From Promethearchaeia archaeon (lineage in GTDB: Archaea; Asgardarchaeota; Lokiarchaeia; Sigyniarchaeales; SOKP01): a stretch of DNA of 38,253 nt. The first letter of the stretch is position 1; every line of letters starts with the position of its first letter. A program made the position numbers and the translations under genes. The DNA is taken from the NCBI GenBank assembly GCA_029856155.1, contig JAHQWL010000051.1, forward strand, positions 1 through 38,253, written 5' to 3'. The notes beneath the pieces are model-generated. The model searched no databases, was not told the DNA's origin, and saw only the letters and a program-made list of their open reading frames with translations. Positions 5,449 to 34,339 of this stretch are shown here, one piece after another.

Positions 5449-6804
5449 TTAGAGATTAATGCGCCCTATTACTCTAAATGGTAAGGATTCAATGAATTTA
5501 TCGTAATCATAGATTCTTCTTCCATCCACAAGGTTAGGCGTTTTCATGTGTTTCTTAAAATCATCGGGAGTAAGTACTGAAAAATCTTCCCATTCAGTAA
5601 TTAATAAAGCACATTCAGAATCTTTTAAGGCTTCTTCTATGGAGTTAGCATATTTAATTTTATCCCCTATTTCTTCTTCTGCTGTTTTGAGAGCTTTAGG
5701 ATCATAGCCAATGATATCAGTTACTCCTCTTCTTCTTAATTCATTGATAACTCTGATACTTGCTGCTTCTCGCATGTCATCTGTACCTGGTTTGAAAGCA
5801 AGACCAAGTAATGTAACTTTCTTGCCAGCTAGTTTTCCAGCTAATTCTTCTGCAATATCTACAATATGAATAGCTTGATCATCGTTTATCTCTAGAACCG
5901 CCTCTAATAATCTTGAAGTGTATCCTTTAGATTTCGACCATGCCTTTATCGCATTTACATCTTTATGAAAGCAAGAACCGCCAAAGCCTACACCTGCGCG
6001 CAAAAATCTCGAATTTATTCTATAATCAAGGCCTACACCTTTCATAACTTGCGATATATCTACATTTGGGACTAATTCTGCAAAATTAGCGAATTCATTA
6101 GCATAGCTTATTTTTGTTGATAACAAGCAATTATTACCATATTTAACTAATTCAGCACTTTCCAAATTCATTCGTAAAATAGGGCATGTTTTTAAGTGAT
6201 CTCCATAAAAATATTCATAAAATTCTTGGAGCATCGCACCGCTTTTTTCATCGAATTCACCAATAACAATCCTATCTGGATGTAAGGTATCTTCAATTGA
6301 ACGCCCCTCAGCTAAAAATTCTGGTTGCATGCATAACCCATAATCTTTTCCCGGTTTTTTCCCAGAGACCTCCTCTATAATTTTGGAAACTAAATTTCTA
6401 GTAGTACCGGGAACAACCGTTGATCTTACTACTACTAAATGATACTTATTCTTACTCTTCAATGCTTCCCCGATTTCTCGAGCAGTACTCTCTATAAAAC
6501 TCAAATTAATACTTTTATCTTCTCTCATTGGAGTTCCTTGAGTAATCATAGAAATATCAGTTTCCAACACGGCTTTAACAGGATTAGTAAGACAACGTAA
6601 AAGTTCTGGATTCTTTTTTTTAATATCATCCATCATTTCTTGAAGTCCTGCTTCAAAAAAAGGAGCTTTTCCATCATTGATTATAGAAACTTTCATTTCG
6701 TTATGCGTAGATGCTAAAACTTTAATATCTTTATTAGCAAAACATGCTGCTGAGCAGAGGCCAATAAAGCCTGTCCCGAGAATTGATAAACTGTACTTAT
6801 ACAT
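5449..6804 (-). CDS. ugd: UDP-glucose/GDP-mannose dehydrogenase family protein
   Basis: GTGFIG Rossmann motif, STVVPGT, PEFLAEG, GFGGSCFHKD catalytic Cys and LAFKPGTDDMRE. Confidence 0.88.
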   Translation of the reverse strand: MYKYSLSILGTGFIGLCSAACFANKDIKVLASTHNEMKVSIINDGKAPFFEAGLQEMMDDIKKKNPELLRCLTNPVKAVLETDISMITQGTPMREDKSINLSFIESTAREIGEALKSKNKYHLVVVRSTVVPGTTRNLVSKIIEEVSGKKPGKDYGLCMQPEFLAEGRSIEDTLHPDRIVIGEFDEKSGAMLQEFYEYFYGDHLKTCPILRMNLESAELVKYGNNCLLSTKISYANEFANFAELVPNVDISQVMKGVGLDYRINSRFLRAGVGFGGSCFHKDVNAIKAWSKSKGYTSRLLEAVLEINDDQAIHIVDIAEELAGKLAGKKVTLLGLAFKPGTDDMREAASIRVINELRRRGVTDIIGYDPKALKTAEEEIGDKIKYANSIEEALKDSECALLITEWEDFSVLTPDDFKKHMKTPNLVDGRRIYDYDKFIESLPFRVIGRINL

Positions 6805-6968: not shown

Positions 6969-8249
6969 ATGAGTGATTTAAGAAAAAAATTAAAAATTAC
7001 AAATAAGGCTTTAGATGCGGTAAATAAATTTCTTACTGACGAGAATAATGTTTTAATATATGAATTAATTAAAATAATCGATAAATACGGTGGAGTGAAT
7101 GAAATAAATAAAAAAGCTAGAGAAGCAAGAAATTTAAATAACTTATTAGAAAGACTTAGAGCTAAAAAACCAGAATATTCAAAAGATCTTCAATGGCTAA
7201 TTGACCAGAGAGATAATAATGCTTTTATAAGTATATCAGATTATAGGAAAAAGATCCTTGGCGACAAATTATCAGAAATGGAATTTGATAAAGATTATGC
7301 AGTAACCTTGGAACTTTCTGCTTGCCAATATTTTCCCTTCTTTATTGATATAGCTAAAGCTGCGATTAATGATAAAAATTTAATGCCAGGAAGAATAATT
7401 CGTGTAAGAAAAATGAAAGAGCAAGAAGAAGATGGAGATCTATTAGCGATGGCCGCTGCTATGCAAATTATAGGAGCAACATATGTTGAGACCCTTGATA
7501 CAAAAGGTACTGCTCTTGGCTCTGATGGAATGCCTGTAAATGTCCACTTGGGAGGACCCGAAACTATTACAGGATATTTTGGTGGGGTTGGTCAACCAAA
7601 TGATTTTGCTTTAAAATGGATTGATGAATATCTTTATTATTATACAAACTATGGGATTAAACAAGTCTTAAATGTTAATCCTGGAACAGTATTGCTTGGG
7701 TATTTTATCCATAAATTAGGAATAGATAACGAATTTAAAATTTCAGTTTATATGGGTAATGATAATCCTTATGCATGTCTTTGGACTTTATTAACAGCTA
7801 AATTATTTGCCCGTGAAGATGGAACAAGTCCTTTGATCGGCTTTAACCTAGCTAATTCAATTAATAATGAAACTCTTGAACTTTCCGCATATATTAGAAA
7901 GGAATTTGGTTTTGAGGATGTTGTGAGATTAGAACATCATGTAATTGAAACTCAAAAAAGTATTGTAAGGCAACCTTATGATAAGAGAGATGAATTAGTG
8001 GAAGTTGCTAAGAAAGTAAAAAATATTAGTGCTAAACATGAAGGTGGCGATGTGGAATTAGATGGGAGCAGAGAACATCCTTCAGATATATTAGATTATT
8101 TTAGAGATAAGCAAGAAATAATAGATTCGGGCCATTGGGAATTTATGCGAAGAAATCATCTTGATAGATATATTGCTATAAACACTACTGCTAAGATCTT
8201 GACTGAAAATGGTATTGATATTATTGCAGCTCAAAATTTACATAAATAA
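6969..8249 (+). CDS. Uncharacterised soluble 426-aa protein, enzyme-like
   Basis: Long ORF with Gly/His/acidic motifs (NVHLGGPETITGYFGG, LEHH, KHEGGD, HPSDILDY). No family recognised. Ends 28 nt before the aldolase-Fae gene. Confidence 0.8.
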   Translation: MSDLRKKLKITNKALDAVNKFLTDENNVLIYELIKIIDKYGGVNEINKKAREARNLNNLLERLRAKKPEYSKDLQWLIDQRDNNAFISISDYRKKILGDKLSEMEFDKDYAVTLELSACQYFPFFIDIAKAAINDKNLMPGRIIRVRKMKEQEEDGDLLAMAAAMQIIGATYVETLDTKGTALGSDGMPVNVHLGGPETITGYFGGVGQPNDFALKWIDEYLYYYTNYGIKQVLNVNPGTVLLGYFIHKLGIDNEFKISVYMGNDNPYACLWTLLTAKLFAREDGTSPLIGFNLANSINNETLELSAYIRKEFGFEDVVRLEHHVIETQKSIVRQPYDKRDELVEVAKKVKNISAKHEGGDVELDGSREHPSDILDYFRDKQEIIDSGHWEFMRRNHLDRYIAINTTAKILTENGIDIIAAQNLHK

Positions 8250-8277
8250 GAATTAATAATAAGGAGTGTAAGAAATA

Positions 8278-9765
8278 ATGGGAAAATTTGATTTTAGACC
8301 CTCTGGGGTGATGCCAGCAATGGTAACTCCCTTTAATAAGGATGAATCAATAAATGAAGAGAATTTGAGAAATTTAGTAAATCATCTTATAGATCAAGGA
8401 GTTACTGGGCTAGTTCCAGTAGGTACAACTGGAGAATTTGTTAATATGACCTTTGAGGAACGATTAAAGGTCATTAAAATCGTTGTTGATGAGGTAAATG
8501 GGAGGGTTCCCGTAATAGCGGGAACCGGAGAAACAGGAACTAAATTAGTAATTGATGCTACAAATGCCGCAACTGACATCGGTGCTGATGCAGTATTAAT
8601 AGTTACACCATATTTTTTAAAACCAAAAGCGAAAGGGCTATATGATCATTATTTTACAATTGCAGAAAAAACTGATATTCCTATAGTATTGTATAATATA
8701 CCCGTTTGTACAGGAGTAGAATTACCTTGGACGGTGGTGGAGGATCTCGTGGATATCGAAAATATTGTTGGAATTAAAGATTCGAGTGGAGACTATAAAT
8801 ATTTTTCAGCATTATTGGAAAAGGTAAGTGATAAAATTTCAGTTCTCATCGGCTGGGATGAAAATGTTTTGGGTGCTTTAGCTGGAGGTGCTGCTGGATG
8901 TATTCTAGGCTCTGCCAACGTTATTCCTAAAATCTGGATTGAGATCTATAATCATGTAAAAAATAATCGATTACAAGAAGCTCAAGCACTTCAGAAGAAA
9001 GTTCAAAAATTAGCTAGACTTTTGATAAATTCTGGAGCTTTAGGTGCAAAATCTTGCCTAAATATGATGAAAATTCCAGTAGGTAAAACCCGTCAACCAA
9101 TTATTATAGGTGATGCACTTTCCTATGAAATAAAGGATGAATTAAGAGTTGAGCTTGAAAAACTAGGTTTGATTGAAAAAACAGAAATCCAATTTGAAAT
9201 TGGAAAAAAATCCCTTACAAGTCGTTTTTATGCTGTTGGAATTACACCCAAGAAAATTTCTGATTTCGGATTAAAAGTAGGGGAATCTCTTGTAGGAGAT
9301 CGTGCTGAACTCGCACATATTGATATACTAATAGGTAAGAAAGATGGACCCGTTGGTAATGCCTATGCCCAAGCTTTAGCTAATCCAGAAGAGGGACGTG
9401 AAGGTCTTCAGGTTATCCTTGAACCTAATATGCAAGTAAAACCAGCGACGATAATGATTCCTACAGTTCGACCTACTTCTCTCCGTCATGCAAGTCTGAC
9501 TTATGGTCCCGCTCAAGCTGCTATAGCCAAAGCAGTAATACAATGTGTTGAAGATGGCATTCTTCCGAAAGAATTAGCAGAAGACCTTGTAATAATTGTA
9601 AATGTTTTTGTTCATCCTAGTGCTAGTGCTAGAAAAAGAATATTTATCAATAATTATAAAGCAACACGTAATTCAATAAGAAAAGCAATGGAAGGATTAC
9701 CAACAGTAGATGATGCTATTGAGAATGCTGAAAATGCACGGCATCCCTTTCGTAATGATCCATAA
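8278..9765 (+). CDS. Fusion: DapA/NAL-family class I aldolase (aa ~1-300) plus formaldehyde-activating enzyme Fae domain (aa ~332-495)
   Basis: N-terminal part: MVTPF, GTTGE, LYNIP and Schiff-base Lys in GIKDSSGD. C-terminal part: VGESLVG..ELAHIDILIGKKDGPVG, KPATIMIP, GPAQAAIAKAV, NYKAT and HPF, all typical of Fae. AAGGAG SD upstream. Confidence 0.88.
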   Translation: MGKFDFRPSGVMPAMVTPFNKDESINEENLRNLVNHLIDQGVTGLVPVGTTGEFVNMTFEERLKVIKIVVDEVNGRVPVIAGTGETGTKLVIDATNAATDIGADAVLIVTPYFLKPKAKGLYDHYFTIAEKTDIPIVLYNIPVCTGVELPWTVVEDLVDIENIVGIKDSSGDYKYFSALLEKVSDKISVLIGWDENVLGALAGGAAGCILGSANVIPKIWIEIYNHVKNNRLQEAQALQKKVQKLARLLINSGALGAKSCLNMMKIPVGKTRQPIIIGDALSYEIKDELRVELEKLGLIEKTEIQFEIGKKSLTSRFYAVGITPKKISDFGLKVGESLVGDRAELAHIDILIGKKDGPVGNAYAQALANPEEGREGLQVILEPNMQVKPATIMIPTVRPTSLRHASLTYGPAQAAIAKAVIQCVEDGILPKELAEDLVIIVNVFVHPSASARKRIFINNYKATRNSIRKAMEGLPTVDDAIENAENARHPFRNDP

Positions 9766-11124: not shown

Positions 11125-11610
11125 ATGACAGAACAAATAATAGAGTTAAAAGTTGGAGCAGAGGCACCTAATTTTTGTCTTCCAGATAAAGATAATAATA
11201 AAGTCTGTTTGGATGATTTTAAAGGAAAATTTGTTGTACTATACTTTTATCCGAAAGATAACACGCCTGGCTGTACTACTGAAGCGATAGGATTTACGGG
11301 AATTTTACCCAAACTGGAAAAATTAGATACTGTTGTAATTGGAGTTAGTCCTGATAGTCCTGAATCTCATGCTAAGTTTATTGAAAAGAAAAATTTGAAG
11401 GTTACATTACTTAGTGATATTGATAAAAAAGTCATTAAAAAATATGGTAAATGGGCTAAGAAGAAATTTCGAGGAAAAGAATATATGGGTGTTGTTCGAA
11501 GTACCTTCTTAATAGATCCTGATGGAAAGATAGCACATATATGGTCAAAGGTTTCCGTAAATGGGCATCCTGAAGATGTTCAAAAGGTTTTAACTAAATT
11601 AAGAAAATAA
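11125..11610 (+). CDS. bcp: Peroxiredoxin Bcp/PrxQ
   Basis: YFYPKDNTPGCTTEA, GVSPD, LLSD and RSTFLID motifs. Confidence 0.92.
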   Translation: MTEQIIELKVGAEAPNFCLPDKDNNKVCLDDFKGKFVVLYFYPKDNTPGCTTEAIGFTGILPKLEKLDTVVIGVSPDSPESHAKFIEKKNLKVTLLSDIDKKVIKKYGKWAKKKFRGKEYMGVVRSTFLIDPDGKIAHIWSKVSVNGHPEDVQKVLTKLRK

Positions 11611-11631
11611 TTTTAATTTTCACCTTAAATT

Positions 11632-12210
11632 TTGGAAATGGAACAAAATATGAATGTGAAAGAAGCAATTGAAGAGAGAAGAGCCTTTAGATCTCTTGAC
11701 CCTGTAGAGATTTCTGGTGATTTGATAAATGATTTAGTAAAAGTTGCCCAAATAGCTCCATCTTGTATGAATAAACAACCATGGAACTTTATTTTTATAA
11801 CTGGTCGGGAACAATTAATAAAAATATTTAGTATGCTTTCATCTGGAAATAAATGGGTCGAGAAAGCTTCAATGATTATAGCAGTATTCAGCAAACCTGA
11901 ATATGATTGCATTATTGGAGAACGCCAGTATTACTTATTTGACACAGGATTGGCTACCGCTTTTTTGATTTTACGAGCTACTGAGTTAGGTCTAGTTGCT
12001 CATCCTATAGCGGGATTCAAAGAAGATGAAGCTAAAAAAATCCTAGAGATCCCTGAGGAATTTAGGCTTATTACACTAATCATTATTGGAAAACATTCCG
12101 AAACCATTAATCCGGTTCTTTCTGAAGCAATGAAATTAGGAGAAAAGCAAAGACCTCCAAGGAAAAAATTGGAAGAATTTACATTTATGAATAGTTATAA
12201 TAATAGATAA
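11632..12210 (+). CDS. Nitroreductase family flavoprotein
   Basis: RRAFR, APSCMNKQPWNF and ATELGL motifs. Start may be ATG 11638 or 11650. Confidence 0.88.
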   Translation: MEMEQNMNVKEAIEERRAFRSLDPVEISGDLINDLVKVAQIAPSCMNKQPWNFIFITGREQLIKIFSMLSSGNKWVEKASMIIAVFSKPEYDCIIGERQYYLFDTGLATAFLILRATELGLVAHPIAGFKEDEAKKILEIPEEFRLITLIIIGKHSETINPVLSEAMKLGEKQRPPRKKLEEFTFMNSYNNR

Positions 12211-12233
12211 ATTTTGGAGATAGCCATTAAAAA

Positions 12234-14318
12234 ATGACTTCAAATTTAATAGAAGGAAAAAGAAATCATCTTTCAAGTGAAAAGAGTCCTTATTTACTTC
12301 AACATGCCAAGAATCCAGTAGATTGGTATCCTTGGGGAGAAGAAGCTTTTAATAAAGCAAAACAAGAAGATAAACCAATCTTTTTATCGATAGGGTATTC
12401 TACTTGCCACTGGTGTCATGTTTTTCTTCACGAATCATTTGAGGATGAAGAAGTAGCTGAATTGATGAATAAGATATTTGTATCAATAAAAGTGGATAGA
12501 GAAGAACGTCCCGATATAGATAAAATCTATATGACTGTATGTCAAATGATGACCGGCTCAGGAGGTTGGCCACTTACCATTATCATGACCCCTGATAAAA
12601 AACCTTTTTTTGCAGGAACTTATTTCCCTAAAGAGACTCGGTTTGGACGAATAGGGTTAATAGATTTAATTAAGCGTATTAAAGATCTATGGGCTAATCA
12701 AAGAAATGAGATATTAAATTCTGCGGATCAAATTACATTTAGTCTTCAAAATATTGATCAAGAATCACCTGGAGAGGTATTTTCAGAGAGCACTCTAAAA
12801 AAGACATATAAGCAATTATCAATACAATTTGACAGTGTAAATGGTGGTTTTGGAGATCGTCCTAAATTCCCTACACCGCACAATCTTATATTTTTATTAA
12901 GGTATTGGAAACGTACTGGAGAAAAAAAAGCATTAGAAATGGTAGAGAATACACTTCAGGCAATGAGAAAGGGAGGTATTTATGATCATATTGGTTTTGG
13001 ATTTCATAGATATTCAACTGATTCAATTTGGCTTGTTCCTCATTTTGAGAAAATGTTGTATGACCAAGCATTAATTGCAATTGCTTATATTGAAGCTTAT
13101 CAAGCTACTAAAAATGATTTTTACAGAAAAACAGCTCAAGAAATACTTTCCTATGTTCTAAGAGATATGACTTCTCCAGAAGGGGGATTTTATTCAGCTG
13201 AAGATGCAGATAGTGAAGGGGTGGAAGGAAAATTTTACGTATGGTCAAAAGAAGAAATGGAAAAAATTCTTGATAAGGATGAATTGAATTTAGCAATTAG
13301 AACGTTTAATATTGAGGAAGCTGGTAATTATCTTGAAGAAGCATCCGGGAGAGAGACGGGTAAGAATATTTTCCATTTAAAAAAATTTCCAGATAAAGAA
13401 TCACTTGAAGAAATTGAAAAAATACGGTTAGTTTTGTTTAATTTAAGAGAAAAGAGGATACATCCTCATAAAGATGATAAAATATTAACTGATTGGAATG
13501 GATTACTAATAGTTGCTCTTGCCAAGGCAGCAGTAACTTTTCAAGAAAAAGAGTATTTAGAGTTTGCAAAGAACGCAGTTGATTTTATACTTTCAAAGCT
13601 TCGAGACTCTAATAAAAAAATACTTCATCGATATAAAGATAGTAGTGCTGAAATTCAGGGTTATTTAACAGATTATGCTTTCTTCATTTGGGGTCTTATA
13701 GAATTATATGAAGCTACTTTTGATATTTTTTACTTAGAAACAGCTCTCGAATTACATCAGATCCAAATAGAAGATTTTTGGGATGAAAATATTGGTGGGT
13801 TTTATTTTACAGCTAAAGATGGAGAAAAATTATTAACTAGACAAAAAGAAATTTATGATGGAGCTATTCCCTCGGGGAATTCAATTGCGATGTTAAACTT
13901 GCTTAGATTAAGTAATATTACTGGAAATTATGAATTAGAGGAAAAAGCAGATATTTTAAGTAGAGTATTTTCTAGCAAAATAGAAGCGAGTCCTCTTGCA
14001 TATACTCAATTTTTGGTTGCAATAGATTTCGCTATTGGTCCAACTTATTCATTAGTTATAGCAGGTGATTCAGATACTAAAGATACTAATGAATTAATAA
14101 GAATTATTCAAAAGGAATATATTCCGAATAAAGTGATTATCCATAGAAACACAGAAGGTGAATCTTCAAGAATGGATGGATTGTCGAATTTTATCCAATT
14201 TTTCATTAAGTTAGATGATAAAGCAACGGGATATGTTTGTATTAATAAAACCTGCAAACCTGCAACATCAGATCCTGAAAAAATAATTGGACTACTAAAT
14301 GCAGAATGGAAAATTTAA
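12234..14318 (+). CDS. YyaL/SPATA20-like protein (thioredoxin-like domain plus six-hairpin glycosidase-like domain)
   Basis: [54 protein letters not shown] and [10 protein letters not shown]. Confidence 0.9.
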
Positions 14319-15707: not shown

Positions 15708-17705
15708 CTATAATCTATCGGTGATTATTGAATAAATTTGTTCAGCTGTAAACCCTTTAATATCTATTGCAGAACATCTGCAATTTCCTGAACAAGCACC
15801 ACACCCTTTACAGAGTGCCTCATTGATTTTAGCTACAGTTCCAAACCATCGGTCTTCAACAAGTTCAATTGCTCCATAAGCACAATTCTCGACACACATA
15901 CCACATCCTATACATCTTTCAGGTCGAACAACTCCAAAAAAGGGTTCTACTTCAACTTCTCCCTTAGCCATTAATACAGCAGCACTTGATGCCGCTCCTT
16001 TAGCTTGAGCTACAGCATCTGGAATATCTTTTGGCCCCTGAGCAACACCAGCAATAAAAATACCATCTGTTAAAGTATCAACGGGTCTTAATTTTGGATG
16101 TGCTTCTAAAAAGAATCCATCAGCAGATCTTTGAATTCTTAATAGAGAAGTTATTATATCTGCATCTACTCGTGGTTCTATTCCGGTTGATAATATAAAT
16201 AAGTCAACTTTTAATTCAACTGGTTGCTGAAGTAAGGTATCTTCCGATCGGATAATAATATTATGATCTTCATCTTCGGTAACCTCTGCGATTCTGCCCC
16301 TCACATAACTAATTCCATAGTTTCGGCTAGCAGATTCGTAAAATTCCTCATATCCTTTTCCAAAAGCTCGAATATCTATATAGAAAATATATATATCAGC
16401 ATCAGGATGTTTTTCTTTATATTGTCTTGCTTGTTTTGTAGCATACATACAACAAACTCGAGAGCAATATTGATTCCCTCCTTCTCTAAAATTCCTACTT
16501 CCGACACATTGCAGGAAAGCGATGCTGTGTGGTTCTTTTAAGTCAGAAGGTCTTACTGGTTTTCCTATAACTGGTCCAAAAGAACTTAATAAACGTTCCA
16601 TTTGAAGCCCCGTAATAACATTTGGATATATTCCATATCCATATTGCTTTAACTCTGTTGGGTCATATAAATCCCATCCAGTTGCTACAATAATTGTTCC
16701 TACTTTAACTTTCAAATATTCTGGTTGATCATCATAAATTATAGCTTCTGGTTCACATACATCAATTCTTGCACAAATTCCGCACTTAATACAATTATCC
16801 ATATCTATTGTATATTGCCCAGGAATAGCTTGGGGAAATGGAATATATATTGCTTTTCGTGCAGCTAATCCTAATTCGAAATCATTCCCTACAGTAACAG
16901 GGCAATAATCAACACACACTCCACATCCAGTACATTTTTTTTGATCTACATAATGAGGTTTTTTTAATATTGTGACTTCAAAATTCCCTATATACCCAGA
17001 CACTTCTGTTACTTCAGAATATGTTAAGAGTTCTATATTTTTTTCTCGTGATATTTCAGACATTTTTGGAGTAAGGATACAACTTGAACAATCCATGGTT
17101 GGAAATGTTTTGTCCAGTTGAGCCATATGACCTCCAATTGTAGGAGTTTTTTCCACTAAATATATTTTGTATCCCTCTGCAGCAAGGTCTAAAGCCGCAT
17201 TCATACCTGCAATTCCTGCTCCAATTATTAAACAAGATGGTTCTACTTTTACTTTCTGTATTTCAAGAGGGACTAATTCTCTTGATTTTGCTACTGCCAT
17301 CCTAATATGATCTTTAGCAGTTTCATATGCCCCTTCTGGATCTTTCATATGAACCCATGTTGAGTGTTCTCTAATGTTTGCCATCTCAAACAGAAATGGA
17401 TTTAACCCTGCTTCTTTACAAGCAATTCTGAAAGTAGGTTCGTGCATTCTTGGAGAACATGCAGCAACTATAACTCTATTTACTAATCCCGCTTCAATAT
17501 CTTCTTTAATCATTTTTTGACCTACATCAGAACAAAAGAATTTATATTCTCGTGCAACTTCTACATTTGGAAGAGTTTTGGCATATTCCACTAAATCTGG
17601 GACCGAAACTACACCACCAATGTTTATTCCACAATGACAAACATAAACACCAATCCTAGATCTTTCATTGCCAGTAATCTCAATTTCTTTTTTCGTTTCT
17701 GTCAT
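15708..17705 (-). CDS. hdrA: Heterodisulfide reductase subunit A (FAD, Fe-S; electron-bifurcating family)
   Basis: GVYVCHCGINI, ACSPRMHE, GAGIAG, LDKTFPTMDC, QCVGSR, YCSRVCC and HPKLRP; four CxxCxxC ferredoxin motifs. GGAGG SD. Confidence 0.95.
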   Translation of the reverse strand: MTETKKEIEITGNERSRIGVYVCHCGINIGGVVSVPDLVEYAKTLPNVEVAREYKFFCSDVGQKMIKEDIEAGLVNRVIVAACSPRMHEPTFRIACKEAGLNPFLFEMANIREHSTWVHMKDPEGAYETAKDHIRMAVAKSRELVPLEIQKVKVEPSCLIIGAGIAGMNAALDLAAEGYKIYLVEKTPTIGGHMAQLDKTFPTMDCSSCILTPKMSEISREKNIELLTYSEVTEVSGYIGNFEVTILKKPHYVDQKKCTGCGVCVDYCPVTVGNDFELGLAARKAIYIPFPQAIPGQYTIDMDNCIKCGICARIDVCEPEAIIYDDQPEYLKVKVGTIIVATGWDLYDPTELKQYGYGIYPNVITGLQMERLLSSFGPVIGKPVRPSDLKEPHSIAFLQCVGSRNFREGGNQYCSRVCCMYATKQARQYKEKHPDADIYIFYIDIRAFGKGYEEFYESASRNYGISYVRGRIAEVTEDEDHNIIIRSEDTLLQQPVELKVDLFILSTGIEPRVDADIITSLLRIQRSADGFFLEAHPKLRPVDTLTDGIFIAGVAQGPKDIPDAVAQAKGAASSAAVLMAKGEVEVEPFFGVVRPERCIGCGMCVENCAYGAIELVEDRWFGTVAKINEALCKGCGACSGNCRCSAIDIKGFTAEQIYSIITDRL

Positions 17706-17715
17706 TTTTTTCCTC

Positions 17716-18666
17716 CTAAGTTAATTGCTGTTTAACTATATTCAAGAATGGATCTATAGAAATAAAGGGAGAAACTCCTTGCAATTCATGATTTTTAACT
17801 AAACCTAATAAATTAGGATCCATTCCAAACGCAACTCCTAAAAGTTGAGTTATATATATTACAGGAATGTGAAATGGTTCCCCTATGATATCTCCATAAA
17901 AATTGTTTACCTCAACCTGCCCTAGGTCCAATTGAAGGTGGCAGAAAGGACAGCAGTTAATAATAATGTCTACGCCTGCATCTCTCATATTCACCAATTT
18001 TTCCCGTGTAAAATCTGCTGCAACTTCTTTAACAGCAGTTCTAACCGCTCCACCAGCTCCGCAACACATATATTTATCTTTATAATCAATACTTTTAGCA
18101 CCTGTTATTTCAACAATCTCGTCAAGAAATTCAGGAGATTCATATTCTCCATTCCATGGTCTTTTTTCGCTTGGTTTTACTATATGACATCCATAATGTA
18201 CGCCTACCTTTAAATCTGAGAATTTTAATTTGATGAAATCTTTTAAATAATCTAATCCCATATCGAGATATAAAGCTTGAACAATATGTTTTGGTTCAAA
18301 AGTACCTGTATATTTTCGACCAATTTTGGCGAGATATTCATTTACTTCTTTCTTTTTTTCATAATCATGCTCAAGTTCATACCAAGCATCTCTAAGAGTT
18401 CCATAACAACCATTACAGCCGGTGATTGGACTTACTCCTAATTCTTCGGCGATAGAGATATTTCTTGCAGCAATAACAAACCAAGTTGGTATATGAAATG
18501 CTCTAAAGACACCTGGAGCAGGACAACATGACGCACCGGGCAAATCTAATAGTTCAGCTCCTAGATGATCAAAAACATTTCTTATTGAAATTTCGATCAT
18601 AGGATAACGATTAGGAATTACGCAACCTAAAAAAAAACCATATCGCCATTTATAATCTTCATTCAT
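17716..18666 (-). CDS. hdrB: Heterodisulfide reductase subunit B
   Basis: FLGCVIPNRYP, SCCPAPG, CNGC, HYGCH, CCGAGG and CPFCHLQLD motifs. Confidence 0.95.
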   Translation of the reverse strand: MNEDYKWRYGFFLGCVIPNRYPMIEISIRNVFDHLGAELLDLPGASCCPAPGVFRAFHIPTWFVIAARNISIAEELGVSPITGCNGCYGTLRDAWYELEHDYEKKKEVNEYLAKIGRKYTGTFEPKHIVQALYLDMGLDYLKDFIKLKFSDLKVGVHYGCHIVKPSEKRPWNGEYESPEFLDEIVEITGAKSIDYKDKYMCCGAGGAVRTAVKEVAADFTREKLVNMRDAGVDIIINCCPFCHLQLDLGQVEVNNFYGDIIGEPFHIPVIYITQLLGVAFGMDPNLLGLVKNHELQGVSPFISIDPFLNIVKQQLT

Positions 18667-18668
18667 AT

Positions 18669-19271
18669 TTATTTCTCCTCATTCTTTTTTTCTGCTTTTG
18701 CTCTTTCTTCTTTTAGTTTTGCTGCATTATCCAATAGTTTTTTAAATCCTACAGCATTCATCAAATCTTGGCACTCCTTTAAAGCTTCAGGATAAGAATG
18801 AACTGTTGGAGGTAAAGGGGGTAATCCATAGGATTCTCTTAAATCCCTCCATTTCTTATTTGCTTCTCCGTTCGCGGGTACACCATGCCCAGTAGCATAG
18901 AATATATCATTAGCTAATCCAAAATGTGAATCTAAAATATAACCTTCTTCCACAGCAATATTTCTGAGCTTTATAATCAAATCGGTTACTGGAATATCAC
19001 GAGGGCATCTTTCATAACAATAATAACAAGTTGAACACATCCAAATATCAATGTCTTGTAAAACAGATTCGTCACCTGTTAATGCACGACGGAGAGCAGA
19101 ACGAGTCCTATATGCTGTTCGACGTCCACTTGGACAACTTCCAGTACAAGTTCCACAATTGATACATGCTCTTATTTTTTCTAATCCCGCGTCAACAAAC
19201 TTTTGTGCAATTCTGGAGTTTGTAGACTTATAGACCTTTCTTTTTATATACTTTTCTACATTTTCGCTCAT
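18669..19271 (-). CDS. hdrC: Heterodisulfide reductase subunit C
   Basis: CINCGTCTGSCPSGRRT and WMCSTCYYCYERCPR. ATG 19271 (MSENVEK) is preferred over the TTG at 19361. Confidence 0.93.
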   Translation of the reverse strand: MSENVEKYIKRKVYKSTNSRIAQKFVDAGLEKIRACINCGTCTGSCPSGRRTAYRTRSALRRALTGDESVLQDIDIWMCSTCYYCYERCPRDIPVTDLIIKLRNIAVEEGYILDSHFGLANDIFYATGHGVPANGEANKKWRDLRESYGLPPLPPTVHSYPEALKECQDLMNAVGFKKLLDNAAKLKEERAKAEKKNEEK

Positions 19272-19541
19272 TAGTATACCAAATCCCCTATGTTGTGTAA
19301 AAATCGATTTGCGATTTTGTAAAAAAACAAGGTATTTACAATTAAATGTTTGATCAAACAAATTGATTGATAATCTTAAGAAGGTAAAAGTATTTTTATT
19401 AAAAAAATTTGTTATCGATAATTCATAACAAAATTCAAAATAACAATTATTTCTTATATTTTACATTTTTATAAGGATTAAAAAAAAAGAAATTTCCAAT
19501 AAATAGGTAAGTATAGTTTTAATAATTTTTTGAGGAAATAA

Positions 19542-27631: not shown

Positions 27632-28855
27632 CTAATAAATAGCTTGCTTGACTAATTCTAAAAGTTCAATAACTTTAATTTTGGAATTTATTTCTTTTGC
27701 TGCATCTAAAAGATTACTTAGGCAAAATGGACAAGTAGTAGTTAATATATCTGCACCTGTTTCTTCAGCTTCTCTAACTCTATCAATAGCTATCTCAATA
27801 GCTAAATCTGGAAATCCTGATTTTAGACCGCCCCCTGCTCCGCAGCAATATGAATAGTTACGATTACGTCTCATCTCAATAAATTCATCTTGTTTTATAG
27901 CATTTATTACATTTCTCGGAGCATCATAAATACCAGAATGTCTACCTAAATGGCAAGGGTCATGATAGGTAATTTTTCCTTCAACTTTATTTGATATTTT
28001 AATTTTACCCTGATTAATCAATTGGTCAACTAATTCAATTGCATGAAGAACCTGAAAATCCCAATCCTTGACATATTTTGGATAATCATATTTGAGCGTT
28101 TTATAGCAACCAGCACAAGTAACTACTATTTTCTCTATACCTGCTTTTTTAAAGACATCCTTATTGTGCTCAACTAATGCTTTAAAAAGGTTTTCTGCTC
28201 CTGATCGTAAATTGATAGAACCACAACACCACTCATCTGCAGTTATGGATAATTGAATGCCTGCTTTGTTTGCAATTTCTATAAATGATTTTGATATTTC
28301 ATTTAATCGATAAGCGGAAGTACATCCTACAAAGAATAATGCATCTCCACCCTTAGGCAGAAACTCAAAATCTTTGGGGATCCAATTTAGTCGATCATAA
28401 TGATTTTCAAAATAGGGATTATGTTCTTTTACTTCATGAGCGAAAATCTCTTTATGTCTAACTAAAGGAGCCACTCCAATATCTACTAAATCTGCCCTTA
28501 ATGCTTCCCAAATTTCTACATGATCGTCGATACTTTCTCTTGCTGGATTGCTCATGCAAGGATTCTCTGGATTATTACAGACTTCCCTACATGCTCCACA
28601 TAGAGTACATTGATAAATAACCTCTGCAAGCCCTTCACTTGGTTCTATTTTTCCATCAAGTAATGCCCTGGCTATGGTAAATCTCCCCCTCGCGAAAAAA
28701 GCCTCAAAACCAGGACCATGATCCCTCATAGGACATGTGATTTCAAGTAAAGGATTGCTATATGGTCCTTTTAAAGCTCCTCTGCAATCACCAATTGCTA
28801 CACATGAGAGTATTCTTTCTTTTAATTCCTCAAGTCTCTTTAATTTTTCAGTCAT
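27632..28855 (-). CDS. Fe-S oxidoreductase with two CCG domains (GlcF/HdrD-like)
   Basis: CTLCGACREVC, FFVGC, WCCG, CAGC, YHDPCHLGR, CCGAGGG and CPFC; AAGGAG SD. Confidence 0.88.
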   Translation of the reverse strand: MTEKLKRLEELKERILSCVAIGDCRGALKGPYSNPLLEITCPMRDHGPGFEAFFARGRFTIARALLDGKIEPSEGLAEVIYQCTLCGACREVCNNPENPCMSNPARESIDDHVEIWEALRADLVDIGVAPLVRHKEIFAHEVKEHNPYFENHYDRLNWIPKDFEFLPKGGDALFFVGCTSAYRLNEISKSFIEIANKAGIQLSITADEWCCGSINLRSGAENLFKALVEHNKDVFKKAGIEKIVVTCAGCYKTLKYDYPKYVKDWDFQVLHAIELVDQLINQGKIKISNKVEGKITYHDPCHLGRHSGIYDAPRNVINAIKQDEFIEMRRNRNYSYCCGAGGGLKSGFPDLAIEIAIDRVREAEETGADILTTTCPFCLSNLLDAAKEINSKIKVIELLELVKQAIY

Positions 28856-28924
28856 TTTTTATTGCTCCTTCTCTCTTCTAAGTTTAATTATTAAATAAAA
28901 TGATTTATTATCGGTTTTAATTAG

Positions 28925-30400
28925 CTAAAATCTAAATTTTCCAGAGCTAATTATATTATTTGGATCAACTAAATTTTTTACTTTCTTTAAGAAATTATAA
29001 AACCTATCATCATATATTCTTGAATCGACTAAAACTTGTGAACCAATTTGCCCACACATGTAAATTACTCCACCAGCTTTCAGTAAAAGCTCAAATTGTT
29101 CTTTCCATAAACGAATAACCTCTTCCTTCAAATCCTCATCGGTTGTGGCAGTTAATCCACTTCCAATATAACAGCTATTATGATTTAACATGACAATATG
29201 ACTTGTTCCAGCCTCAGCTTCTGCATCCAAGAGTTCTTCATATTTTTCTTCTTCCCATTTATCTAATTTGTATAATATTTCTGGAAAACGTGATACTGGT
29301 ACGATTACTTCTGTAGTACATGCAAAATAATTTGGACCACATATAGAAAATAAAGGATGATATACTTGCCAATGACCTTGCTCACCATAATACCAATCTG
29401 TAATGTTTCCCTCATTAGCACTCGGACCTAATTCTCTTGTTGAATATTTCTCTGCAATACTCGCTAGGATTTCTGAATTCCTCTCTAAAACTTTTTCATC
29501 AAAAGCTTCAGTCACATAGAAAATTACTCCTCCTTTTATTTCTCCCCATGTCTCAATTAATTTATCAGTTGTAATTCCCATCACTGCTGGGGGTGGTGTA
29601 AAAAAGAAATCATAAATTCCTAATTCTCGAGACCAACCTTTTTTTTTCATTTCTAGTACAATTTTCTGTGCATTTTCATAAGTTTGTTCCTTGATATAAA
29701 ATGTTTTACCTGAAAAATATGGTGGTTTTGGATATATTTTCATTGTTGCCATTGTTTTTATCCCCATTATACCATTGTCTCCAAGAAATATACCCATTAA
29801 ATCTGGTCCTAATGCAAGTCGAACAAACGGTTTCTCGACATATCGATTCTCTTGAGAACCAAGTCTTATTACTTCACCCGTGCCTAATACAACTTCTAAT
29901 CCAATACAATTTTCACTACATTTTCCATACTTTGCACATCCACCTCCACCCCCAGAATGATGAGACAAACCTCCTCCAATCGAAGCATTAAGACCAGAAC
30001 CAGGACCCATATTCCCCGTATAAAAACCTTTATCAAAAAGAACTGCATTTAGCCTGGACCAATTAATTCCACATTGTACAGTAACAGTATGATTTTCTTC
30101 ATCAATATCTATTATTTTATCCATTCTGGTTAAATCAATAAGTAAAGTGTCTTTACTAATGGGTTTACTCCCTCCCATTAAACCACACCCACCTCCTCGA
30201 GGGAGAATAGGAGTATTATATTTATTTGCAACTTTAATAATTTCTGCTACCTGCTCAGTTGATTCGGGACGAATTGCTATTTGAGGTATAATTTCAGGCA
30301 AGCAAGGATCTAATCCTCTTGAATATGCTACACAGATAAAATCCTTATCAGAACAGTATTTATTTCCTACAATCTTTACTAATTCATCATATAACCCCAT
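28925..30400 (-). CDS. FAD-binding oxidoreductase (GlcD/VAO-PCMH superfamily)
   Basis: PRGGGCGLMGG, ASIGG, GLEVVLGTGE, GPDLMGIFLGDNGIMGI and C-terminal DPNNIISSGK. ATG 30400 preferred. Confidence 0.85.
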   Translation of the reverse strand: MGLYDELVKIVGNKYCSDKDFICVAYSRGLDPCLPEIIPQIAIRPESTEQVAEIIKVANKYNTPILPRGGGCGLMGGSKPISKDTLLIDLTRMDKIIDIDEENHTVTVQCGINWSRLNAVLFDKGFYTGNMGPGSGLNASIGGGLSHHSGGGGGCAKYGKCSENCIGLEVVLGTGEVIRLGSQENRYVEKPFVRLALGPDLMGIFLGDNGIMGIKTMATMKIYPKPPYFSGKTFYIKEQTYENAQKIVLEMKKKGWSRELGIYDFFFTPPPAVMGITTDKLIETWGEIKGGVIFYVTEAFDEKVLERNSEILASIAEKYSTRELGPSANEGNITDWYYGEQGHWQVYHPLFSICGPNYFACTTEVIVPVSRFPEILYKLDKWEEEKYEELLDAEAEAGTSHIVMLNHNSCYIGSGLTATTDEDLKEEVIRLWKEQFELLLKAGGVIYMCGQIGSQVLVDSRIYDDRFYNFLKKVKNLVDPNNIISSGKFRF

Positions 30401-30436
30401 AATTTTACACAATTAAGGCATAATTTTTATATTTTT

Positions 30437-32617: not shown

Positions 32618-34339
32618 TTAGGCTCCATTCATAATTTTAATTTTTGGAGTATAATATTCGCCAATCGAGTAGTTATTGAAGTTTATACTATAATGGTTTC
32701 GCCAATGTGCCTTGACATCTTGTAACATTGCTTCCATAACACTTTCTTTAACTTTTCCTTCTGCACATATAGTATTTCCCATTGGAGTTGCTACAATCTC
32801 TCCTTCTTTTACGACGATTTGACCATCTTTTATTGTATAGGCTGCTAAAGTAAATGCTTTTTCTATTGAATCCCCATCCATTTTTTTCGGATCTAAATTA
32901 TATATAGCTACATCACCAATTGCTCCTTTACCTAAATGACCTCTATCTGTCATACCTAAACATTTAGCAGTACCTGCTCGTGTTATAGTACTAATTTCAT
33001 ATAAATTCAATTCACGGTCAATATCTTTTAATTCTGTTTTTTCAGATGCCTTTTTGGAACATTGATTTAAAAGAACATCATCTCTTGATTTCTTATCCAT
33101 TAACCAGCGAATAATTTGAGGATAAGAAGTAAATGGTCCTCCATTTGGATGATCAGTCGTCATAAATATTTGCCATGGATTCTTAATAAGGAGCATAAGC
33201 TCTAATCCAACACACCATTGTATCGCATTAACGGCTACTTTAGGCTTGAAAAAATAAGGAACTATACCTGAACCGGACTCCCCTTCAACCTGACCATTTA
33301 TCCATTTAATTCCCGGTTTAGCCCCCCAAGCTGAAGTACCCCCGATATGATGAAGTGCAAATTCCCAAGGACCGTCTGCGGTCATTGTTGTAGTTGCCGC
33401 TTTCCCAAAAATAACTTGACCAGCATCAGTAGTAATATGATCGTGTGAATTTAAATATTCAGCAATATCAGCGGCCCCAGATTCGAAGTCACCCCAATTT
33501 GTACCTCCATATGCATTAAATTGGCAATGGGTCAAGTGAAAAGCAGATTTTCTTCCATTTTTTGGTTTAATCTTATCAACAGCTTTAAAAGTTTCAAGCG
33601 TATGTTCTTTATTCCCAGGATGTCCTAAATTATTAGCATGGACGTGAATCGTGTGTGGTAATTTTAGGATTTCATTAACTTTTGCTAAGCTTTCTAATAT
33701 TTCTCTTGGTGTAACCTCGAAATGAAAAACTGTAGAATCAAGGCTATCAACATTTTTTCCCCATGCCCAATTTTCAACACCCCCAGGATTTACTATTTTT
33801 ACGGCATACCCCTTGGTAACCTTTAAGATCCAGGCAATATATGCTGCTAATTTTTCATAATCCTTCTTTTTAATAAACTCCATTACGAACCAATTATTTC
33901 CGAAAAGAGGGAAGGCAGCTTTGTCTATAATTGGTGTAACCATAAATTCTTCATGAGTATGTCTTGCTTTAAGCAATGGCATTGCAGGTTCAACAACAGT
34001 GGTATACCCAAGTCGGGCATATCGATATCCAGTCGCCCATGTTGATGGTACTGACCAACCAGTTCCGCTTCGGGTTATTTTAGTCTTCTTTTCATTAAAT
34101 TCTTCAAGTTTATCATCAGGTCGAAATGAACGTCCGGCATTCACTTTAGTTCCTGCAATATGAGCATGAATATCGACCCCTCCTGGCATTACAACCATTC
34201 CAGAAGCGTCAATTATCTTAGCATCTCCATTGACTTTTTCTACAATAATACCATCTTTAATGTGAATTTCTTTCTTTTCGCCGTCAATCTTATTCAATGG
34301 GTCGTATACTAAGCCATTTTTAATTATTAGGTCTTTCAT
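32618..34339 (-). CDS. fwdA: Formylmethanofuran dehydrogenase subunit A (amidohydrolase)
   Basis: PGGVDIHAHIAG, GYTTVVEPAMP, KIVNPGG, HVHANNLGHPGN, HCQFNAY, TTDHPNGGP and TRAGTA. Confidence 0.95.
   Translation of the reverse strand: MKDLIIKNGLVYDPLNKIDGEKKEIHIKDGIIVEKVNGDAKIIDASGMVVMPGGVDIHAHIAGTKVNAGRSFRPDDKLEEFNEKKTKITRSGTGWSVPSTWATGYRYARLGYTTVVEPAMPLLKARHTHEEFMVTPIIDKAAFPLFGNNWFVMEFIKKKDYEKLAAYIAWILKVTKGYAVKIVNPGGVENWAWGKNVDSLDSTVFHFEVTPREILESLAKVNEILKLPHTIHVHANNLGHPGNKEHTLETFKAVDKIKPKNGRKSAFHLTHCQFNAYGGTNWGDFESGAADIAEYLNSHDHITTDAGQVIFGKAATTTMTADGPWEFALHHIGGTSAWGAKPGIKWINGQVEGESGSGIVPYFFKPKVAVNAIQWCVGLELMLLIKNPWQIFMTTDHPNGGPFTSYPQIIRWLMDKKSRDDVLLNQCSKKASEKTELKDIDRELNLYEISTITRAGTAKCLGMTDRGHLGKGAIGDVAIYNLDPKKMDGDSIEKAFTLAAYTIKDGQIVVKEGEIVATPMGNTICAEGKVKESVMEAMLQDVKAHWRNHYSINFNNYSIGEYYTPKIKIMNGA

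Follow-up and report, generated by a model that had tools for sequence, protein, structure and literature searches.

We describe a 495-amino-acid protein, encoded in the window (the whole 38,253-nucleotide stretch of Lokiarchaeia DNA analysed here) by a single uninterrupted open reading frame at positions 8278-9765 of the forward strand, in which an aldolase is joined to a formaldehyde-activating enzyme (Fae) domain. The fusion is a real and conserved feature made of two already known domains, undescribed in the searchable literature; as the preliminary description of this DNA had supposed, our literature searches returned no description of an aldolase-Fae fusion. We consider it likely that the protein moves a C1 unit, and somewhat probable that it is a two-domain 2-oxo-acid hydroxymethyltransferase, an analogue of PanB built from other parts. 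On the basis of gene context, its substrate is, with a probability slightly above even, 4-hydroxy-2-oxobutanoate (HOB). The features on which the analysis is based are the following:

6969-8249, forward strand: gene X, 28 nt upstream of the fusion, a 426-aa TIM-barrel protein, poor in Cys and apparently U32-like, that belongs to no named family.
8250-8277, forward strand: 28-nt spacer containing AGGAG, a ribosome-binding-like motif (from sequence).
8278-9153, forward strand: class I (DHDPS/NAL family) aldolase barrel with Thr50/51, Tyr139, Lys167, GWDE at 192-195 and Cys144 (from Pfam, alignment and fold).
8707-8709, forward strand: Cys144, where DHDPS has Arg138 (from alignment; invariant in 121 close homologues).
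9154-9273, forward strand: structured linker between aldolase and Fae, with a helix and a beta hairpin (from the AF2 model).
9274-9765, forward strand: complete Fae domain with His347, Gln413 and a C-terminal HPF arm (from Pfam, TIGR03126 and alignment).
32618-34339: solitary fwdA, 23 kb from the fusion and outside its locus.

The reading of one frame with a complete aldolase and a full Fae domain was confirmed: Pfam assigns residues 8-292 to DHDPS (E 2.5e-77) and residues 334-491 to Fae (158 of 159 model positions, E 4.9e-57), the latter starting at about nt 9274, and the AlphaFold (AF2) model is confident, with two domains (pLDDT 88, pTM 0.83). The 120 best clusters are near full-length, 85-92% identical and of identical two-domain make-up, and the fusion is present at 80 genome loci; therefore, an assembly artefact, an objection that the preliminary description had itself raised, is ruled out. 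All 121 sequences compared share T50, T51, Y139, C144, K167, D194, E195, H347 and Q413, and the equivalent of Tyr107 is Phe113 in this copy only, being Tyr in the other 120. Further, full-length fusions were found down to 35-50% identity in Thorarchaeia, other Asgard groups, Thermoproteota and Anaerolineae, and also on contigs adjoining Bathyarchaeia-like Y proteins (see below). The short spacer with its AGGAG motif suggests that X and the fusion form a two-gene operon; regarding expression, one RNA run contained an identical piece of 187 nt only, which is uninformative.

The barrel displays the class I hallmarks of the DHDPS/NAL family that had been read from the sequence beforehand, namely a TIM barrel, the GTTGE loop, and the equivalents of Tyr133 (Tyr139, nt 8692) and Lys161 (the Schiff-base Lys167, nt 8776); its fold matches that of DHDPS 2YXG with a TM score of 0.96. 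With the TIGR00674 dapA model the fusion scores 244.9, above the cut-off of 206.15, and it thus receives the database name dapA. That name implies a second true DHDPS for lysine synthesis, a reading with which the best PDB matches, also DHDPS, agree, and which we nevertheless regard as very improbable. The TGT codon at 8707-8709 encodes Cys144, aligned to the Arg of the DHDPS motif YNVPxRT as previously proposed; this position is Cys in 121 of 121 close homologues, and no aligned fusion homologue has an equivalent of Arg138. The fusion has GTTGEF and GWDE in place of the GTTGES and GDD of DHDPS, and a canonical dapA with the Arg motif, scoring 338 with the same model, is found elsewhere in the genome, adjoining both dapB and a gene resembling lysA. 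A quick tree placed a branch with SH-aLRT 99 between the fusion barrels and 38 further members of the family, two long-branch rows joining the fusion side, and its Arg-bearing DapA clade (SH-aLRT 99) included the genome's own dapA and excluded the fusion. A role as a lysine enzyme thus appears unlikely, as already suspected, and the gene is probably misannotated. Scores were also below the curated cut-offs for NanA (163 against 382 bits), KdgD (120 against 374), archaeal KDG aldolase (114 against 390) and HpaI (193 against 397). The fusion resembles DHDPS (DapA), NAL, KDG aldolase, YagE and YjhH in its fold and its Thr-Thr, Tyr and Lys core, and differs from them in the missing Arg138, the separate clade and the attached Fae. 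A 672-aa ORF (G000:C1:55016-55804; L003:1549-3567) joins a degenerate DHDPS-like domain, in which the canonical Tyr and Lys motifs are not evident, to a phosphotransferase-like C-terminal part.

The Fae domain scores 189 bits with TIGR03126 (cut-off 118). His347 (nt 9316), the conserved His named in the preliminary description, aligns to that of M. extorquens Fae (1Y5Y), and Gln413 to the Gln of its GPAQ motif; we take these residues to be His22 and Gln88, with their roles in Fae. The Fae-Hps model NF009833 matches the Fae part only (152.6, cut-off 274) and no Hps domain, and a true Fae-Hps is encoded at a separate place in this genome. Fae-Hps likewise holds a Fae domain and a formaldehyde aldol enzyme in one protein; in the fusion, however, Fae occupies the C-terminal end and is joined to a Schiff-base pyruvate aldolase. 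In the PDB, a chain named Avd (8UB7) matches Fae across residues 127-287, probably because it is an engineered fusion.

Tandem copies of the fusion occur in many genomes, including 20 of the 20 Anaerolineae loci fetched. Within a pair, the Fae His and the C-terminal arm tend to be missing from the first copy and the Gln from the second, complementary losses that fit an inter-subunit site common to both; the single gene of the window has both residues. These observations bear on the view that the two domains are uncoupled, the barrel being an ordinary 2-keto-3-deoxy-aldonate aldolase and Fae serving in oligomerisation or detoxification. The loss of single catalytic residues in some tandem copies would agree with this, as would the fact that Mch was not found in most bacterial carriers. 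Against it, the Fae His and Gln are invariant in the 121 close homologues, the retention of His in one copy and of Gln in the other suggests selection for a working site, and no conserved sugar genes lie beside the fusion, so we consider uncoupling quite improbable. Nor did anything tie the fusion itself to C4 sugar acids, a degradation route that had initially been put forward.

The partner gene X, which the preliminary description of the fusion did not take into account, is present at 78 of 81 fusion loci, directly upstream of the fusion save in two. Among 68 genomes of the family, 42 carry both genes, 21 neither and 5 are discordant; X and the fusion have been gained and lost together. X had no match in Pfam or NCBIfam, and searches by PDB sequence and Atlas features gave no name either. 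Its AF2 model is a TIM barrel (pLDDT 89), with a 312-aa U32 cluster (TM 0.75) and a 316-aa Chloroflexota cluster (TM 0.74) as best Atlas matches; the fold search in the PDB returned generic barrels overall, Mk0906 (Z 11.7) being level with many others. X may share its barrel fold class with the U32 proteins UbiU/UbiV, RlhA and TrhP, and we take the Lys-x-Glu-Gly motif of their strand 8 to be similar in X. The four-Cys motif of the Fe-S U32 hydroxylases (PMC10990095) is absent from X, which has 2 cysteines, none invariant, and from Y, which has 3.

Y is a 310-aa protein that flanks the fusion in Asgard lineages without X. Its feature search returned what appears to be the 316-aa Atlas cluster of X, and the two profiles are weakly similar and collinear (hhalign probability 18%, E 0.0013); we regard them as remote homologues, mainly on the basis of the structure clusters. 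Across 301 Asgard genomes, X was found in 180 and Y in 29, none listing both. The X family comprises at least 8000 unannotated clusters at 90% identity; viral contigs searched held neither X nor Y, and no aldolase fused to X or Y was seen among the top representatives. Distant Y paralogues, 37-46% identical to Y, are encoded after sugar-acid dehydratases or before DmpF/DmpG, which suggests that the family acts on 2-oxo acids, and no more than that. Examples are a truncated paralogue before dmpF/dmpG on a Mycobacterium plasmid (L204:9986-12542), and paralogues that, in Thermomicrobium and Streptomyces, follow a dehydratase of the mandelate-racemase family (L200, L203). On a Polaromonas plasmid (L098:7720-14026), a 51% identical X homologue under a sigma54 activator stands opposite a cluster of Arg-bearing DapA-like, TRAP and dehydrogenase genes, near a Cys/Met lyase-like gene.

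Given these contexts, X itself could be the formaldehyde-releasing aldolase, with Fae capturing the product and the fusion barrel hydrating, deaminating or cleaving a longer 2-oxo acid. The Lys residues kept on strands 5 and 8 of X and Y, the sugar-acid and DmpF/DmpG neighbours of the distant Y paralogues, the frequent proximity of X to aldehyde:ferredoxin oxidoreductase (AOR) and the likeness of GWDE to sugar-acid aldolases all speak for such a division of labour. It would, however, leave unexplained that a single PanB-type enzyme replaces both fusion domains, and the paralogues in sugar contexts are just 37-46% identical to Y, for which reasons we hold it to be unlikely.

The replacement by PanB bears on the proposed hydroxymethyltransferase activity. 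X directly adjoins panB on many Chloroflexota-like contigs, and Y also adjoins panB, so that the four pairings X-fusion, Y-fusion, X-panB and Y-panB were all seen, as in a two-by-two swap; among 30 Anaerolineae X loci, 14 have an adjacent panB and one has the fusion in its place. The X/Y-linked panB genes form a clade of their own, PanB2 (support 0.999), and often the genome encodes a canonical panB at another place as well. Searches of 151 Anaerolineae genomes detected Fae in 41, PanB2 in 35 and the two together in 1 (Fisher p 6.5e-5), a significance overstated by kinship, since the co-occurrence counts rest on related and incomplete genomes. X or Y is carried by 75 Anaerolineae genomes, 37 with the fusion and 29 with PanB2 (one or the other in 66), and 7 of the remaining 9 have PanB3, a sister clade that shows three changes of a similar kind; among the 76 non-carriers, the fusion or PanB2 is limited to 9. 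PanB catalyses hydroxymethyl transfer between a methylene-pterin and a 2-oxo acid (PMC7770189). The PanB reaction equals an aldolase step and a Fae step added together.

PanB2 keeps all catalytic residues and is bulkier at the positions of E. coli Val179, Ile202, Ile212 and Val214 (21-22 of 22 sequences, against 0-1 of 31). These four positions presumably line the methyl pocket in the E. coli PanB structure; if so, the bulkier side chains would favour a substrate smaller than ketoisovalerate. An alternative reading is that the same C1 transfer operates on another 2-oxo acid, either ketoisovalerate, giving ketopantoate as a stand-in for PanB in CoA synthesis, or 2-oxobutyrate. The interchange with PanB-family genes is as expected under this alternative, and panB was not found in some fusion-bearing Asgard lineages (g3, g5, g11, f11, f15 and f18). 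Yet a canonical panB is kept in this genome, together with PanE and PPS homologues, and in most Asgard carriers; the swapped PanB is usually an extra divergent paralogue, and the homoserine dehydrogenase cluster of Fae-less Asgard (see below) agrees poorly with pantoate. Another 2-oxo acid is in our judgement rather unlikely, and a simple replacement of the pantothenate PanB is rejected, since most Asgard genomes with the fusion have panB as well. Both PanB2 and PanB3, as divergent Anaerolineae clades (L176:5124-5987, L329-L368), pass or resemble panB models, and their panB labels are probably misannotations. A protein 62% identical to the Glu/Leu/Phe/Val dehydrogenase-CBS protein that flanks an Anaerolineae X-panB pair (L176:7264-9156) is encoded elsewhere in the genome of the window (G000:C44:66778-68589).

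A third setting of X is found in Fae-less Asgard, where it is followed by a class I aminotransferase, a homoserine dehydrogenase, AOR and sometimes a PatB C-S lyase, and where the genomes checked have only the canonical panB. HOB is both hydroxymethylated pyruvate and the keto acid of homoserine, and is therefore the simplest compound common to the fusion, PanB2 and aminotransferase-homoserine dehydrogenase modules. The reaction HOB = pyruvate + formaldehyde, proposed in the preliminary description, thus gains independent support, because in other settings the partner of X is a divergent PanB, or an aminotransferase and a homoserine dehydrogenase; its substrate, direction and channelling we infer. 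Under the HOB reading, the barrel would interconvert HOB with pyruvate and formaldehyde through a Schiff base on Lys167, and the Fae domain would condense the formaldehyde with H4MPT, for a net reaction HOB + H4MPT = pyruvate + methylene-H4MPT. X would supply or remove HOB. Most hosts ferment amino acids, and genes for C-S lyases turn up repeatedly close to X or PanB2. Our tentative preference is therefore that HOB is a product of X, made from a 4-substituted 2-oxobutanoate, for instance methionine's keto acid, and that its carbon passes on to fermentation and to the Mtd/Mch/Fwd branch. We lean slightly towards the catabolic direction; the reverse flow, which would yield homoserine from pyruvate and C1, is somewhat less probable. 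One arrangement counts against the HOB reading: in Prometheoarchaeum-like genomes, X lies downstream of and adjacent to an unrelated, divergent stand-alone DHDPS-like gene with 26% identity to the fusion barrel (L209:7778-8821, L210:7085-8128).

With regard to the C1 carrier, Mch, Mtd and FwdA were found in this genome and Fhs was not found (97% complete), so H4MPT is the likely carrier in this host. The earlier proposal of an H4MPT pathway accordingly stands for the host, where Fae-Hps is also present, and not for the family as a whole: Mch was found in 7 of 41 Fae-bearing Anaerolineae (none found in 34) against 5 of 110 other Anaerolineae, these being MAGs in which absence means not found. 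H4MPT is therefore doubtful as the sole acceptor across the fusion family, and bacterial carriers may use folate or another acceptor. The fwdA of the window, formerly cited as contextual support, was discarded as such, being 23 kb distant and unlinked.

Compared with PanB, the proposed net reaction is alike and the genes interchange with PanB2, but the fusion has no homology to PanB (no PF02548 match), relies on a Schiff-base barrel and Fae where PanB has a single Mg-dependent site, and probably acts with H4MPT and on a smaller substrate. DmpG/DmpF cleave a 4-hydroxy-2-oxo acid to pyruvate and capture the aldehyde on a carrier, as proposed for the fusion; in contrast, they comprise a class II aldolase, use acetaldehyde and CoA, and are two polypeptides. 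In the synthetic homoserine cycle, the HOB aldolase step carried out by RhmA or GarL shares the proposed pyruvate + formaldehyde = HOB chemistry and the link to homoserine, although there it is a side activity with free formaldehyde, whereas that of the fusion would be native and cofactor-coupled. Against the HOB reading, HOB has been called non-native in E. coli work, its formation otherwise being a side activity (PMC8879981); in its favour, in an engineering study P. putida PanB allowed partial HOB-dependent growth (10.1101/2025.02.17.638773).

A natural HOB-centred pathway in Asgard, Bathyarchaeia and Anaerolineae, in which X or Y feeds the fusion, a divergent PanB, or an aminotransferase and homoserine dehydrogenase, is to us a serious possibility just short of an even chance. 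If true, it would connect pyruvate and the aspartate family with pterin-bound C1 through a compound so far known mainly from synthetic biology, provide a native pyruvate/C1 link in abundant sediment anaerobes, and offer natural enzymes for a reaction that is left to side activities in the synthetic homoserine cycle. The dapA name now in wide use for such genes, and probably some panB names, would then need correction, and a large unannotated protein family, that of X, would gain a testable role.

Other genes of the window include 2-oxoacid:ferredoxin oxidoreductase alpha/beta, hdrABC, and a pair of GlcD-like and Fe-S CCG-type proteins (98-2609, 15708-19361 and 27632-30412). Of the 81 loci, 61 have a divergent UDP-sugar dehydrogenase (5449-6804) and 49-57 have a peroxiredoxin-nitroreductase-DUF255 block (11125-14318); both are syntenic in Lokiarchaeia and missing at distant fusion loci, and their sharing probably reflects kinship.
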